Under the pieces are notes generated by a model. It was not told the DNA's origin. It made no database searches and saw only the letters and a program-made list of their open reading frames with translations. Positions 1-50,509 of a DNA stretch of 64,000 bases are shown here, piece by piece. This DNA is from Hyphococcus sp. (lineage in GTDB: Bacteria > Pseudomonadota > Alphaproteobacteria > Caulobacterales > Parvularculaceae): positions 547,501 through 611,500 of the forward strand of contig NZ_JBHIXB010000002.1 of assembly GCF_041986965.1 (NCBI RefSeq), read 5' to 3'. Numbering within the stretch: position 1 is the first letter of the stretch; each line of letters opens with the position of its first letter. A program made the position numbers and the translations under genes.

Positions 1-216
1 GGGGACGCTGTCCATAGCGCTGGCGTGCTGCCGGATCTTCGCTATTCGACCATTCCTCATGATGAGGAGCAGTTCGCAGATGTCGTTCTTGGCGGCGCGC
101 TCACGGAAAACGGCATGGTCTCCTTCGCCAGCGTGCTCGATGAAGAAAGCCTTGCGACACTGCGCGCTTACATCATCGCACGGGCGAATGAAGACCTGGA
201 GATTTACGGAGAATAA
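1..216 (+). CDS. Partial CDS (3' end): C-terminal cytochrome c domain of a quinohemoprotein (PQQ-dependent, type II) alcohol dehydrogenase
   Basis: Frame +1 is open from base 1: GDAVHSAGVLPDLRYS...VLGGALTENGMVSFASVL...LRAYIIARANED. This is the typical segment after CxxCH in type II quinohemoprotein ADHs. The CxxCH itself lies outside the window. Confidence 0.7.
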   Translation, partial: GDAVHSAGVLPDLRYSTIPHDEEQFADVVLGGALTENGMVSFASVLDEESLATLRAYIIARANEDLEIYGE

Positions 217-278
217 CGCTTTTTATGTGCATAGCTGGCGCGCCTCGTTAAAAGACTGGCTGCAATGAGGCCGCCCAT

Positions 279-1166
279 CTATGCGTCATTGATCTCATCA
301 AAAATCGGATTTCGCAGGAGAAAGGCGATGGCCTTCGCGCGCTCCTCGTTGATGGGCTCGTCGGGGAAGGACTTCAAGATCGCGTTGAACTTCTCTTCAG
401 CGCCCTTTTTGAACTCCGGATGCGTAAGAATATAAAGATCATTGTTGAGAACGCCCTTTAGAACGCGCTCCCCGCACTCTTCCGCGCTCATCCACAGATC
501 CGAAACCGGACGTTCGGAAAGTTGCTGTTCTGTTTCCAGAAGGCCTGTGTTCTTTTTAAATTTTTCCGGCCGGATTTTTCCCGTTTCGCCGATATTTGAC
601 TGAACGGGTCCCGGACAAAAGGCTGACACGCCGATATTGTCGGGCGCCAGCTCACCCCGAATGGACTCAGAAAGGCCCAGCATGGCGGCTTTGGCCGTGC
701 CGTATATCGAAAAAGCGGTCACCGGCACCAGCGCCGCCTTGGAGGCGGTGTTGACGATATGGCCGCCTTCGCCATGCTTGCGAATATAAGGCAGCACGAT
801 CTGAAGTCCGTTGATGACCCCGCCGATCATGACGCCAAGCCCCCAGTCCCAGTCGTCAAAGCCGAGCTTTGCGAGCGGGCCGCCAACCCCCATGCCGGCG
901 TTGTTAAAGAGCATGTGGATCTTACCGAATTTCTCTTCGGCCTGGCTTGCCGCCGCGGCATAGGCTTCACGGTCAGTGACGTCGAGCTTCAGACATAACA
1001 CGCGATCGGGATCATCGAAAAACGCCGCAGCGCTCTTCAAATGATCGTCGCGAATATCGGCGAGAACCAGATTGGCGCCGGCTTCATAAAACGCCTTTGC
1101 GATGCCAAGTCCGATGCCGCTGGCGCCGCCGGTGATGAACGCCGTCTTTCCCTCTACATCTTTCAT
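279..1166 (-). CDS. SDR of the LigD/L/N/O C-alpha dehydrogenase family (most like LigL/LigN)
   Basis: Start re-assigned to MKDVEGKTAFITGGASGIG (ATG at 1166). Has TGGxxGIG, NNAG and YxxxK (YGTAK). The C-terminal RPEKFKKNTGLLETEQQL...WM resembles recalled LigL. Confidence 0.8.
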   Translation of the reverse strand: MKDVEGKTAFITGGASGIGLGIAKAFYEAGANLVLADIRDDHLKSAAAFFDDPDRVLCLKLDVTDREAYAAAASQAEEKFGKIHMLFNNAGMGVGGPLAKLGFDDWDWGLGVMIGGVINGLQIVLPYIRKHGEGGHIVNTASKAALVPVTAFSIYGTAKAAMLGLSESIRGELAPDNIGVSAFCPGPVQSNIGETGKIRPEKFKKNTGLLETEQQLSERPVSDLWMSAEECGERVLKGVLNNDLYILTHPEFKKGAEEKFNAILKSFPDEPINEERAKAIAFLLRNPIFDEINDA

Positions 1167-1402
1167 GAACGTCCCTGTCCTTTTAGGTCTTACTACTGTG
1201 AAGCATTTGCAATTATTGCGATGTCGCGTCGCTTTTTTACGCCAGCGAAAGTACGGTTGTTGGCGTTTGGACCTGACTGTCATTTGAGCCAAACAGCCAA
1301 TCGCCACCCATGGCGAAACGCGTCCCAACGAACGGTGAAAACGCGGGGCTGACGGCGTTTCGCCCCCTTTTCAATCGCCGCCGGTAAAGTCAGACTATCC
1401 CA

Positions 1403-2203
1403 ATGAGCAACAATGTGCGGGCCGAGATAAACTATGCTGCGCCGATGGCGGGGAAGCCGCGGTTTCACGCCAACGATCAGTCTCGCGATGTTCTAAATCT
1501 CGACCCGCAGACGGTGGAGTTCGTGGATGGTCGTGCGTCGCCGCCGGCGCTTGATCGTGAAGGATTTGCGCTTGTTTCGCATCGCAGCAAAGTGAAGGAT
1601 TTTCGCGACCCGGCTTTTCACGATCTGCACAAAAAAGAGATTGAAGAACTGATCGTCGAACTGACGGGCGCAGACATGGCGATTGTCAATTCACCGGGCG
1701 TCCTGCGGTTTGGCGAAAAATCCGCCGACAGCGGAAGGCTCAACAATTCCCGGCCGGCGCGTTTTATTCATATCGACATCAATGACGAGACTGCGGCGCA
1801 GTTTGCAAAAGCCTCCGCGCCGGAAGGCGCAAAAATAAAACGCACCGCACAGTACAATGTCTGGCGCGTACTCACCCCGCCGCCGCAGGATGTGCCGCTC
1901 GCTGTTTGCGATGCGCGCACCTTGTCGGCTGAAGACCTGATCGAAGCGGATGCCATTTTCGATCAGGAAGGGCAGCCCGACTGGACATTCACAGCGCTCC
2001 TGATCAAAGCGTCGCCACGCCATCGCTGGATCTGGTTCCCGGAGATGACGCCGGATGAGGCGCTGGTTTTTATTACCAATGACAGCGATCCGGCGCAGCC
2101 TCATCACGCCCCGCACAGCGCCTTCAACAATCCTCTTTGCCCGCCGGATGCGCCGCCCCGCGCCAGCATCGAGATGCGCGCCATCGCCTACTGGTTCGAG
2201 TAG
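1403..2203 (+). CDS. CmcJ/NvfI (AsaB-like) family Fe(II)/2-oxoglutarate-type oxidoreductase
   Basis: Motifs HID, YNVWR, PLAVCDA, PHSAF and RASIEMR are characteristic of this family. Confidence 0.65.
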   Translation: MSNNVRAEINYAAPMAGKPRFHANDQSRDVLNLDPQTVEFVDGRASPPALDREGFALVSHRSKVKDFRDPAFHDLHKKEIEELIVELTGADMAIVNSPGVLRFGEKSADSGRLNNSRPARFIHIDINDETAAQFAKASAPEGAKIKRTAQYNVWRVLTPPPQDVPLAVCDARTLSAEDLIEADAIFDQEGQPDWTFTALLIKASPRHRWIWFPEMTPDEALVFITNDSDPAQPHHAPHSAFNNPLCPPDAPPRASIEMRAIAYWFE

Positions 2204-2226
2204 TCATCGCACGAAGGAGCTTCGAC

Positions 2227-48940: not shown

Positions 48941-48961
48941 ATTGTATGCAACATATACAAT
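48941..48961. promoter_or_regulatory. Operator upstream of ligM (DesR/MarR-like)
   Basis: ATTGTAT-GCAACAT-ATACAAT has perfect 7-bp arms. The inner 15-mer GTATG-N5-TATAC resembles the recalled DesR inverted repeats of SYK-6 ligM/desB. Confidence 0.65.
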
Positions 48962-49027
48962 TTTGGCCGCCCGCCTGACGCGGGCGACAAACTTTTTTGA
49001 CAAAACAAGACCAGGAGGATCACGCCC

Positions 49028-50425
49028 ATGACGGCCAAGAATCTGGAAGAGGTGCTCAAAAACGCCGGCAATACGGTGCAGATGCTCCGTAATTCAAAAA
49101 TCGGCGCCTATGTTTATCCGGTCGTCCCGACCGAATTTCACAACTGGCGCGACGAACAGAAAGCCTGGCGCGACACCGCCGTCCTGTTCGACCAGACGCA
49201 CCACATGGTCGATCTGTTCCTGAAAGGCCCGGACGCGATCAAGGTCTGCTCCGACACGGCGATCAACACCTTCAAGAACTTTCCGATCAACCGCGCCAAG
49301 CAGTATGTTCCCGTCAGCCATGACGGCTATGTCATCGGCGACGGCATTCTCTTCAACCTCGAAGAAAACCACGTCGTTTTCGTCGGCCGCGCCCCGTCCG
49401 CCAACTGGCTTCAGTATCATGCGGAAACCGGCGGCTATGACGTCGAAGTTGTCTATGACGACCGCTCGCCCTCCATGCCCATGGGCAAGGCCGTCACCCG
49501 CAAATTCTACCGCTTCCAGATTCAGGGCCCGAACGCCCAGAAAGTCATTGAAAAATTGAATGGCGGGCCGTTCGAAGACATCAAGTTCTTCCATATGGGC
49601 TACATCAATATCGGCGGCAAACAGGTCCGCGCCCTGCGTCACGGCATGGCCGGCGCGCCGGGTCTCGAAATCTGGGGCCCTTACGAGGAATATCTCGATA
49701 TCCGCGCGAAAATCCTCGAAGCGGGCGCCGAATTCGGCATCGTGCCGGTGGGTTGCCGCGCTTACGCGACCAACACGCTTGAATCTGGCTGGATCCCCTC
49801 GCCGCTGCCGGCCGTCTACACCGGCGAAGAGATGAAGAAATACCGCGAATGGCTCCCGGCCAAGTCTTACGAGGCCATGGGCGGCATCGGCGGTTCTTAT
49901 GTCTCCGACAATATCGAAGACTATTATGTGTCGCCTTACGACATCGGCTATGGCCCGTTCGTGAAATTCGACCATGACTTCATCGGCGCCGACGCCCTGA
50001 AGAAAATGGAAAAAGAACAGACCCGCCGTAAAGTGACGCTCGCCTGGAATGATGACGACGTGCGCAAGATCATGGGCTCTGTCATCGGTGAAGGCACGCC
50101 TTACAAATATTTCGAACAGCCGCTCGCGAACTACGCGTCTTCGAACTACGACGCGGTCCTCGCAAACGGCAAGAACGCCGGCTTCTCCATGTTCACCGGC
50201 ATCTCCTATAACGAACGCAAGGCGCTGTCGCTCGCGACCGTCGACAACGATGTGGAGATCGGCAACGAAGTCACCGTCGTCTGGGGCGAAGCCGATGGCG
50301 GCACCGAGAAGACAACGGTCGAGCGTCACCAGCAGATGGAAGTCCGCGCGATCGTCAGCCCGGTTCCTTATTCGGAAACGGCGCGCAAGGAATACGCTTC
50401 CGGCTGGCGCACGGGCAAAGCGTAA
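49028..50425 (+). CDS. ligM: Tetrahydrofolate-dependent vanillate/3-O-methylgallate O-demethylase
   Basis: [55 protein letters not shown] and SPVPYS match recalled SYK-6 LigM. Confidence 0.92.
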
Positions 50426-50447
50426 TTCATTTGCGAAAATCATCCTG

Positions 50448-50479
50448 AAAAAGACCGGCGTTTTCGCCGGTCTTTTTTT
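50448..50479. terminator. Bidirectional rho-independent terminator after ligM
   Basis: AAAAAGACCGGCG-TTTT-CGCCGGTCTTTTTTT. Confidence 0.9.
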
Positions 50480-50509
50480 GTTTAGAAAGCCGCCGCCAAA
50501 TTCTGCAAC

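Follow-up and report, generated by a model that had tools for sequence, protein, structure and literature searches.

The closest described counterparts of the genes analysed here are the lignin-fragment pathways of the sphingomonads Sphingobium SYK-6 and Novosphingobium aromaticivorans, with their C-alpha-dehydrogenases (LigD, LigL and LigN), which are short-chain dehydrogenases/reductases (SDRs), the glutathione S-transferases (GSTs) LigF, BaeAB and a Nu-class enzyme, LdpA (with LdpB), the PcfL, FerD and LigW proteins with a lignostilbene dioxygenase (LSD) in the LsdD position, the demethylase LigM, the acvABCDEF operon and the protocatechuate 4,5-cleavage genes ligABC, ligI, ligJ, ligK and ligU. 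Genes resembling these were found in, or close to, a 64,000-nucleotide stretch of a Hyphococcus sp. genome (assembly GCF_041986965.1, contig NZ_JBHIXB010000002.1, positions 547501-611500), hereafter the window; coordinates are those of the window unless prefixed by a contig number, the window being C2:547501-611500. Comparison of gene content, gene order and protein similarity makes it likely that the first 50.5 kb of the window form the larger part of a ~62.5-kb accessory catabolic island in this Hyphococcus species, a copy of a shared lignin-fragment supercluster that was gained horizontally and has been rearranged and expanded. This degree of confidence applies to the annotation and the island status; function in vivo we infer by analogy with characterised pathways. 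The locus differs from those of the sphingomonads in that its host comes from another order, Parvularculales, its modules form a single fused block next to the protocatechuate 4,5-cleavage genes, a FerA-type ligase is lacking, and a module led by a TonB-dependent receptor has been inserted. Further, AcvAB is encoded here and is missing from N. aromaticivorans.

Relatives of the host have already appeared in the literature. Marinicaulis flavus, now Hyphococcus luteus of the family Parvularculaceae and order Parvularculales according to NCBI, was listed with homologues of BaeA (71%), BaeB (52%) and LigE (78%), and its LigF was included in the corresponding tree (Kontur et al., 2019, Table S1). 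A study of beta-5 dimers (mBio, 2024) named 82 genomes with PcfL, LsdD, FerD and LigW, all from Sphingomonadales except 'Maricaulis flavus'. A vanillyl-alcohol dehydrogenase of M. flavus was characterised in a 2025 paper, and 'LigF-261 from Marinicaulis flavus' served as a recombinant enzyme in a lignin-depolymerising cascade in a 2026 paper. The acv-type clusters are widespread, being known from 570 genomes. The literature searched contained no description of the island architecture or insertion site and no report of a Hyphococcus strain growing on, or converting, a lignin dimer. The earlier note on this stretch, made from its letters alone, had spoken of an undescribed lignin-dimer degrader, which is partly borne out but overstated, given that H. 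luteus figures in the 2019 and 2024 surveys and that two of its enzymes have been expressed. The sister species, the other orders and the three published surveys already show these genes, so there is no new chemistry or type of system here, and the taxonomic point is in print for H. luteus.

The host genome comprises 3.78 Mb in seven contigs with 59% G+C, a completeness of 100% and a contamination of 0.1%. The contig that contains the window is 1.0 Mb long and uniform in G+C content, with the window itself even at 55-62%, and the block is flanked by Hyphococcus core genes. One of these, the housekeeping gene kbl (52631-53833), encodes a protein with 87-88% identity to those of Hyphococcus and Marinicaulis and 63-67% identity to those of sphingomonads; by whole-genome kinship, the host shares its genus with H. 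aureus KCTC 62394 and H. luteus SY-3-19. Of all records, a closed Hyphococcus metagenome-assembled genome (MAG) comes nearest, with 93-96% identity. We considered whether the host could be strain SY-3-19 itself and rejected this; the BaeA proteins of the two are just 86% identical, hence the host is a different species from H. luteus. Positions 279-50425 hold an uninterrupted series of ~48 genes with sphingomonad-type lignin-fragment enzymes, as judged from Pfam, NCBIfam and PDB sequence searches. NCBIfam named none of the window's GSTs, SDRs, NTF2 proteins and amidohydrolases specifically; these were assigned by the PDB searches instead. Thus, two points of the earlier note hold: candidate enzyme genes for beta-O-4, beta-5, beta-1, ferulate, acetovanillone and vanillate steps lie in one block with uptake and regulatory genes, each class where it had been placed, and its guess at a non-sphingomonad host, possibly of Parvularculaceae type, was right, on which the Kbl identities, whole-genome kinship and NCBI taxonomy agree.

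The extent of the island becomes apparent from comparison with congeners that lack it. In the island-free congener G055, moaA, frmB, frmA, an amidase gene and kbl are contiguous, whereas the host has ~62.5 kb of additional DNA between frmA and the amidase gene (C2:535.5-598.0 kb) and a second insertion of ~21 kb between moaA and frmB, the two being separated by the core genes frmAB alone. The block had been delimited at 1-50480. Its right end is supported: the congener Hyphococcus sp. ECK-19, like G055, keeps the amidase gene next to kbl with no ligM at that place, and the host has an intergenic boundary (50426-50766) with a hairpin and a T-run after ligM, followed by the amidase gene (50767-52506, minus strand) as the first core gene. 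To the left, the island extends beyond base 1, with ~12 kb more of it upstream, reaching C2:535.5 kb; this part encodes a third NTF2 paralogue, a LigD-type SDR (54% identity to LigD), a major facilitator superfamily (MFS) transporter, an acyl-CoA ligase, a thiamine diphosphate-dependent enzyme, an AraC regulator and an exported protein of 733 aa. The ~21-kb insertion carries genes for formate-tetrahydrofolate (THF) ligase and formate dehydrogenase, ligK, a ligU-type tautomerase gene, ligJ/I-like genes, ligA, ligB and a ligC-like gene; LigK, the 4-oxalomesaconate tautomerase and LigA (C2:520-525 kb) score above their equivalog cut-offs. At the left boundary of the island, two adjacent open reading frames (ORFs) of 228 and 135 aa (C2:535695-536821) resemble an N-terminal and a C-terminal piece of a single MetE-like gene, which may be split; an intact paralogue of this cobalamin-independent methionine synthase family is found at C2:531031-532158. 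In ECK-19, a gene for a PurU-like formyltetrahydrofolate deformylase (213-1073 of the ECK-19 locus) adjoins the amidase gene at the place taken by ligM in the host. PurU was tried as a marker of the left boundary and dropped, there being no PurU orthologue in the host genome (best match 28%).

Analysis of the phylogenetic distribution showed that BaeA, AcvA and LigM co-occur in the same four of the 101 sampled Parvularculaceae genomes, all four from one genus, of which 21 genomes were sampled. The 12 other genera of the family had none of the three proteins, save for one LigM-like match with 49% identity. H. aureus, one complete Hyphococcus MAG and two more MAGs share the gene order of the island, at 76-96% identity, and the closed MAG chromosome and the H. 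aureus isolate assembly carry the island at the same chromosomal site. Close relatives are thus polymorphic for its presence at a conserved site, as is typical of a genomic island. Beyond the Parvularculaceae, Novosphingobium, Emcibacter and MAGs of Steroidobacteraceae/Gammaproteobacteria have 13-21-kb loci that hold 9-13 of the window genes at no less than 50% identity, and Sphingomonas loci contain 7-8 window genes. Several local orders recur in these taxa, namely BaeA-BaeB-ligase, an Amidohydrolase_2 protein (AH2)-SDR-LigF2-(VOC)-LigM, LigN-LigL, and PcfL-FerD-LigW-MFS-DUF3237-LSD; genes of LdpA type, SDR type and the CmcJ family also stand beside baeAB. The contrast drawn in the earlier note with genes spread over several loci therefore applies to SYK-6 and N. 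aromaticivorans and fails for the compact loci of Novosphingobium, Emcibacter, Steroidobacteraceae and Sphingomonas. Relative to these superclusters (50-85% identity), the host block is longer, and its modules are rearranged and interleaved with acv, ferulate and receptor modules.

Cross-order identities of island proteins reach 72-85% (75-84% between BaeA and its sphingomonad orthologues, 85% between LigW and its Emcibacter counterpart), which is above the 63-67% of Kbl. In the BaeA tree the Steroidobacterales and Emcibacter sequences are nested among those of sphingomonads, which indicates that the supercluster moves between orders. Horizontal gain is favoured by the scattered occurrence of the genes and by the site being empty in relatives, and we regard it as most likely that the supercluster is shared with Sphingomonadales, Emcibacter and Steroidobacteraceae and that the Hyphococcus island was acquired horizontally.

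Some observations weigh against this history and would fit an island that was ancestral to the genus, or to the family, and was lost many times with no horizontal gain. In the BaeA tree Hyphococcus occupies its own side of a branch with 98/96 support and is not nested among sphingomonads; therefore, the donor and direction of transfer are not established. The window has no tRNA gene, and no direct repeats were seen at the insertion boundaries. The G+C content of the island (58.0%) is like that of the genome (59.1%), and there was no integrase or transposase among the Pfam matches of the window genes, a scan that covered the window and left the ~12 kb to its left outside. Against an ancestral island, the genes are missing from 17 of the 21 congeners sampled and from every one of the 12 other genera, the cross-order identities are well above that of a housekeeping protein, and the nesting of Steroidobacterales and Emcibacter sequences among those of sphingomonads shows the supercluster to move between orders. 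We consider this history improbable and keep horizontal acquisition as the preferred reading.

The genes for beta-O-4 cleavage include two overlapping GST genes on the plus strand. The product of the first (7615-8376), the putative catalytic subunit of BaeA type, has LigF (4XT0) as its closest solved relative (167 bits, 39% identity), carries Asn14 and Ser15, which are invariant in 31 orthologues, and is 81% identical to a KCTC 52780 protein that figures as BaeA in Kontur's list. The second (8376-9158), of BaeB type, is 29% identical to LigF and has Pro13 and Ser14 in place of the Asn/Ser pair. The baeA stop and the baeB start share one nucleotide at 8376, with baeA upstream, and the two proteins are 21.7% identical to each other; for both, LigF 4XT0 is by far the top solved match, with LigE unmatched. 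The published traits of BaeAB are an upstream baeA overlapping baeB, LigF-like sequences in both subunits, ~24% mutual identity, Asn14/Ser15 in BaeA and Ser14 without the Asn in BaeB. The pair at 7615-9158 thus has the defining sequence features of the heterodimeric beta(R)-etherase BaeAB and is putatively assigned to it. A putative beta(S)-etherase (34619-35383, minus strand) has full-length similarity to SYK-6 LigF (195 bits, 43.6% identity over 236 aa, identities among LigFs being above 39%) and the N-terminal Ala-Asn-Ser motif, and orthologues from many members of Novosphingobium and Sphingomonas share 71-76% identity with it. Members of the LigF2 subclade are, as published, ~40% identical to other LigFs, and the sequence of this GST fits that subclade.

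Directly upstream of ligF2, on the same strand, are genes for an SDR (35391-36182) and AH2 (36179-37048), both recognised by Pfam; this entry (35391-37048) has a GTG start with an AAGGAG Shine-Dalgarno site. The triad AH2-SDR-LigF2 is repeated in most of the loci examined in other taxa (Sphingomonadales, Emcibacter and Steroidobacteraceae), with 67-79% identity for AH2. Among solved structures, AH2 has a single relative, a Bordetella protein (3IRS) that is itself uncharacterised.

C-alpha oxidation may be served by SDRs of the Lig group. The 295-aa product of the gene at 279-1166 (minus strand; Pfam adh_short) is of LigL type, with 47.6% identity to LigL 4YAE, the highest among four Lig SDR structures, and 90% to its H. 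luteus orthologue. The LigN-type enzyme (9173-10063, minus strand) matches the N. aromaticivorans SDR 3IOY (399.6 bits, 63% identity), which we take to be Saro_0793/LigN, followed by LigO, LigD and LigL as the next closest structures. Together with a third SDR (3703-4617), discussed below, these proteins have the Lig C-alpha-dehydrogenases as their closest solved relatives and share an extended C-terminal region. Removal of glutathione may fall to a Nu-class (YfcG-like) GST (17635-18279, minus strand), a candidate glutathione lyase; a section title in Kontur et al. (2018) has Escherichia coli Nu-class GSTs cleaving both isomers of glutathionyl-hydroxypropiovanillone (GS-HPV), and yghU and yfcG were both cloned in that study, with results described for YghU.

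For beta-1 dimers, a gene at 4655-5389 (plus strand; Pfam SnoaL_4) encodes a putative NTF2-like gamma-formaldehyde lyase of the LdpA type, acting on DGPD (1,2-diguaiacylpropane-1,3-diol) in its erythro form. The protein scores 328 bits to the LdpA structures 8ABV and 8ABT, is 64% identical to both crystallised enzymes and agrees with them at each of the seven active-site positions probed by mutagenesis (Y, D, Y, H, E, Y and H), including the His-Asp dyad. Divergent from it is the gene of the third C-alpha-dehydrogenase-group SDR (3703-4617, minus strand), recognised by Pfam and ~41% identical to 3IOY, LigO and LigD. In SYK-6, ldpB is the SDR gene adjoining ldpA, and by this position the protein may be LdpB. 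A plus-strand gene at 1403-2203 encodes an oxidoreductase of the CmcJ/NvfI family (258.8 bits in NCBIfam NF041278, cut-off 80). In several loci of Sphingomonas and Novosphingobium, homologues with at least 50% identity accompany the genes of LdpA and SDR type that adjoin baeAB, which suggests a conserved, undescribed role near the beta-1 genes. An LSD of the NOV2 type (2227-3693, plus strand; Pfam RPE65) scores 852.5 bits in the NCBIfam equivalog NF053780 (cut-off 650).

The beta-5 genes follow as a run at 10261-17055 whose order mirrors Saro_0796-0802: PcfL-like, aldehyde dehydrogenase (ALDH), LigW, MFS, DUF3237 and LSD. The first (10261-10989, plus strand) encodes a candidate phenylcoumaran gamma-formaldehyde lyase of the NTF2 family, 44% identical to LdpA, with six of the seven LdpA catalytic residues, and stands directly upstream of the ALDH and LigW genes. 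Published PcfL is likewise 44% identical to LdpA and has the gene context Saro_0796-0797-0799; the assignment here draws on the LdpA identity and the gene context, and the genome holds two other NTF2 paralogues (C2:537689 and C3:510731). The ALDH (10986-12416, plus strand; Pfam Aldedh), between the PcfL-like protein and LigW, is 74-80% identical to the same-position protein in the Emcibacter, Steroidobacteraceae and Gammaproteobacteria loci; from its position it may be FerD, oxidising 5-formylferulate. Next comes a putative 5-carboxyvanillate/5-carboxyferulate decarboxylase, LigW (12420-13472, plus strand), with 588.9 bits over its full length to the 5-carboxyvanillate decarboxylase structures 4INF and 4QRN. 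The MFS transporter (13495-15129, plus strand; Pfam MFS_1) also follows LigW in other taxa. A DUF3237 protein (15126-15584, minus strand; 146 bits to the Pfam family) is 78% identical to the product of an LSD-adjacent gene in a Steroidobacteraceae locus; DUF3237 is presumably the PhcF/PhcG family, and a PhcF/PhcG/PinX-type decarboxylase is accordingly a lead for this gene. The run ends with the LSD in the LsdD position (15589-17055, minus strand; NCBIfam equivalog NF053778, 896.6 bits against a cut-off of 800).

The ferulate, acetovanillone and vanillate steps are represented by a second set of genes. The p-hydroxycinnamoyl-CoA hydratase/lyase (HCHL; 20924-21763, minus strand) scores 453.7 bits in the equivalog NF006588 (cut-off 276), and next to it are an alpha/beta hydrolase gene (20181-20909, minus strand; Pfam) and one for an aromatic aldehyde dehydrogenase (22004-23548, minus strand), whose top NCBIfam matches are aryl-aldehyde dehydrogenases, all below cut-off. 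The acvABCDEF-like operon (37122-44142, minus strand) has six genes for the kinase alpha subunit AcvA (PEP-utilizer; 42328-44142), the kinase beta subunit AcvB (PPDK_N; 41266-42318), a biotin carboxyl carrier protein (40801-41262), a biotin carboxylase (39444-40790), a carboxyltransferase (37973-39451) and a HAD phosphatase (37122-37973). Pfam recognises in them PEP-utilizers, PPDK_N, Biotin_lipoyl, biotin carboxylase domains, PYC_OADA/HMGL and HAD, and PRK08296 is matched with 773 bits. Order and domain make-up of the six genes, on which the likeness is based, are identical to those of SYK-6 acvABCDEF (SLG_06540-06490; compare the hpe cluster of Rhodococcus rhodochrous GD02). The putative THF-dependent vanillate/3-O-methylgallate O-demethylase LigM (49028-50425, plus strand) scores 815.6 bits in the equivalog NF047885 (cut-off 580), as against 659.9 bits in the DesA model, below the DesA cut-off of 800. 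An AMP-forming acyl-CoA ligase (47013-48578, minus strand; Pfam) has orthologues (54-59% identity) directly after baeB in sphingomonads.

In some cases, members of the toolkit are encoded elsewhere in the genome. A LigE-like gene flanked by two further LigD-type SDR genes occurs at C1:1142717-1145337; it is a lead only, the first 40 residues alone having been checked against 4YAM/4YAN (52.5 bits), and a phmmer search with LigF-type GST seeds did not recover LigE. LigF1 (C2:876938), the closer LigF orthologue with 64% identity to SYK-6 LigF, lies outside the island, as do a YghU-type GST (C3:276504) and a DesA-like LigM paralogue (C3:482824), and further NTF2 and LigW paralogues lie outside the window. 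In the region C2:876938-880395, LigF1 stands beside a small SnoaL-like gene and one for a 667-aa GMC oxidoreductase, one of two GMC enzymes of the genome and possibly an oxidase of hydroxypropiovanillone (HPV) of the HpvZ type. There is indeed a large contiguous block, as the earlier note had it, but the description of a single-locus toolkit is too strong, since toolkit genes also occur elsewhere.

H. luteus SY-3-19 has orthologues of the first 14 window genes with 68-90% identity. It differs from the host in lacking the NOV2-type LSD and the LigW paralogue at 5379, and no LigF2 match was found in it; at the corresponding site the genes for the LigN-type SDR and the ALDH have none of PcfL type between them. 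In its assembly the BaeA block and a DesA-like gene are 12 kb apart on one contig (C3:341358-354116), and a different contig (C9:401383-409078) holds the acv-LigM block.

Several points reduce the support for the functional assignments. The activities of the island in the host are attributed by analogy with sphingomonad pathways, and FerD, LdpB and the substrate of the DUF3237 protein are assigned by gene position only. The comparison of the BaeAB pair with N. aromaticivorans, for which the criterion is >50% identity and >200 bits, relies on the H. luteus orthologues (BaeA 71%, 388 bits; BaeB 52%, 259 bits; Kontur Table S1). The Nu-class GST scores 249 bits in NCBIfam PRK13972, below the cut-off of 332, and the island has no HPV-oxidising GMC enzyme, the only two GMC candidates of the genome being at C1:1675493 and beside LigF1. 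No FerA-type CoA synthetase gave a match above cut-off genome-wide, and no feruloyl-CoA synthetase is assigned. FerA-type enzymes are ADP-forming and, we assume, carry an ATP-grasp_5 domain; as none is encoded, the ligase of the ferulate branch, if that branch works, must be AMP-forming.

The natural substrates might be other plant or algal phenylpropanoids available in the sea (lignans, stilbenoids, hydroxycinnamates and acetophenones), with lignin dimers not degraded as such. The host family is marine, the locus has two stilbene dioxygenases, an orthologue of 2,4'-dihydroxyacetophenone dioxygenase (DAD), the DUF3237 protein and several unassigned SDR and alcohol dehydrogenase (ADH) genes, and the published substrate ranges of these families are broad; PinX, which acts on a lignan, is a published distant homologue of PhcF/PhcG. 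This explanation is hard to reconcile with the 64% identity and complete set of catalytic residues of LdpA, the 589-bit full-length match of LigW to a 5-carboxyvanillate decarboxylase structure, the 75-84% identity of BaeA to sphingomonad orthologues and the activity on lignin that M. flavus LigF has already shown in an enzyme cascade, and we judge it rather improbable, slightly more so than an ancestral island. That the block is mis-assembled or mis-binned sphingomonad DNA, as the high identity of island and sphingomonad proteins might suggest, is practically excluded by its place within a 1.0-Mb contig between Hyphococcus core genes, the 0.1% contamination and the same site in the closed MAG chromosome and the H. 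aureus isolate.

If the genes of this island act like their sphingomonad counterparts, lignin-derived dimers and monomers would be taken up through the TonB-dependent receptor and MFS carriers. Beta-O-4 dimers would be oxidised at C-alpha by the LigL-, LigN- and LigD-type SDRs and cut with glutathione, the beta(S) isomer by LigF2 and the beta(R) isomer by the BaeAB heterodimer, after which the Nu-class GST may strip the glutathione. In the beta-1 branch, erythro-DGPD would be deformylated by LdpA, with the adjoining SDR in the LdpB position, and in the beta-5 branch the phenylcoumaran ring would be opened by the PcfL-like lyase; the stilbenes formed would be cleaved by the two LSDs, and 5-formylferulate would be converted to ferulate by the FerD-position ALDH and LigW. 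Ferulate is predicted to yield vanillate via HCHL and an ALDH, with an AMP-forming CoA ligase, and acetovanillone would be phosphorylated by AcvAB, dephosphorylated by AcvF and carboxylated by AcvCDE. Demethylation of vanillate by LigM would give protocatechuate, to be degraded by the ligKUJIABC 4,5-cleavage genes of the ~21-kb insertion. As the LdpA- and PcfL-type genes sit in the adjoining insertion, formaldehyde released by these enzymes would arise next to frmAB and the formate genes, and it may be handled by frmAB together with the adjacent formate dehydrogenase and formate-THF ligase.

The remaining genes of the block include a LigW paralogue, an Amidohydrolase_2 (PF04909) decarboxylase-like protein (5379-6518, plus strand; 40% identity to the LigW orthologue at 12420), a SAM-dependent methyltransferase (6515-7351, minus strand; Pfam Methyltransf_25/31/11), a Zn-ADH (45375-46388, plus strand; Pfam) and an exported SnoaL_4 protein (46401-46967, minus strand; Pfam). 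Uptake and regulation are represented by an MFS transporter of the aromatic-acid type (18293-19612, minus strand; Pfam MFS_1/Sugar_tr), two MarR regulators (17076-17603, plus strand, start uncertain; 19645-20184, minus strand; both Pfam MarR), an AraC regulator (23964-24932, plus strand; Pfam HTH_18/AraC_binding_2), a LysR regulator (44311-45234, plus strand; Pfam) and the TonB-dependent receptor (25376-27865, plus strand; Pfam Plug and TonB_dep_Rec). Behind the receptor lies a same-strand module (27919-34493) with Pfam-supported genes for a 140-aa protein, DAD, a VOC protein, a second cupin, an SDR, two Zn-ADHs, an SDR and an exported protein of the metallo-beta-lactamase fold. The first cupin (28351-28884, plus strand) scores 306 bits to DAD (4P9G) and is a close orthologue; the second is at 29308-29841 (plus strand). 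No DAD is assigned in the lignin pathways of the literature searched. Two antisense ORFs picked by a simple codon-score caller, 3799-4434 and 27922-31794, were rejected because Pfam backs the genes on the opposite strand. The latter (minus strand, 1290 aa), like another at 31713-34403 (minus strand, 896 aa), is a GC-rich coding artefact over the real plus-strand operon. Beyond the island, a Flp-type pilin-like ORF (62765-63472, plus strand) with a long Gly/Ser/Ala/Pro-rich tail and a terminal lysine run stands by itself, with an aldose-epimerase-like gene on one side and clpA on the other.

More tentatively, the two insertions around frmAB could together be a self-sufficient, transferable package leading from lignin oligomers to central metabolism, which would have moved between orders and given one marine Hyphococcus lineage growth on terrestrial lignin fragments in seawater; the same conjecture, which we rate as rather improbable, includes an undescribed DAD/VOC/ADH route, led by the TonB receptor, that acts on aryl alpha-hydroxyketones, and an AH2-SDR pair as conserved partners of LigF2. 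For work on lignin valorisation, the consolidated gene order draws attention to the DAD module, the AH2-SDR pair next to LigF2 and the gene of the CmcJ family close to LdpA. The related carriers H. aureus and H. luteus, set against island-free strains of the ECK-19 type, provide a natural comparison of whether the gene set suffices for lignin-dimer assimilation outside Sphingomonadales, and the island points to a marine lineage that may consume fragments of terrestrial lignin.

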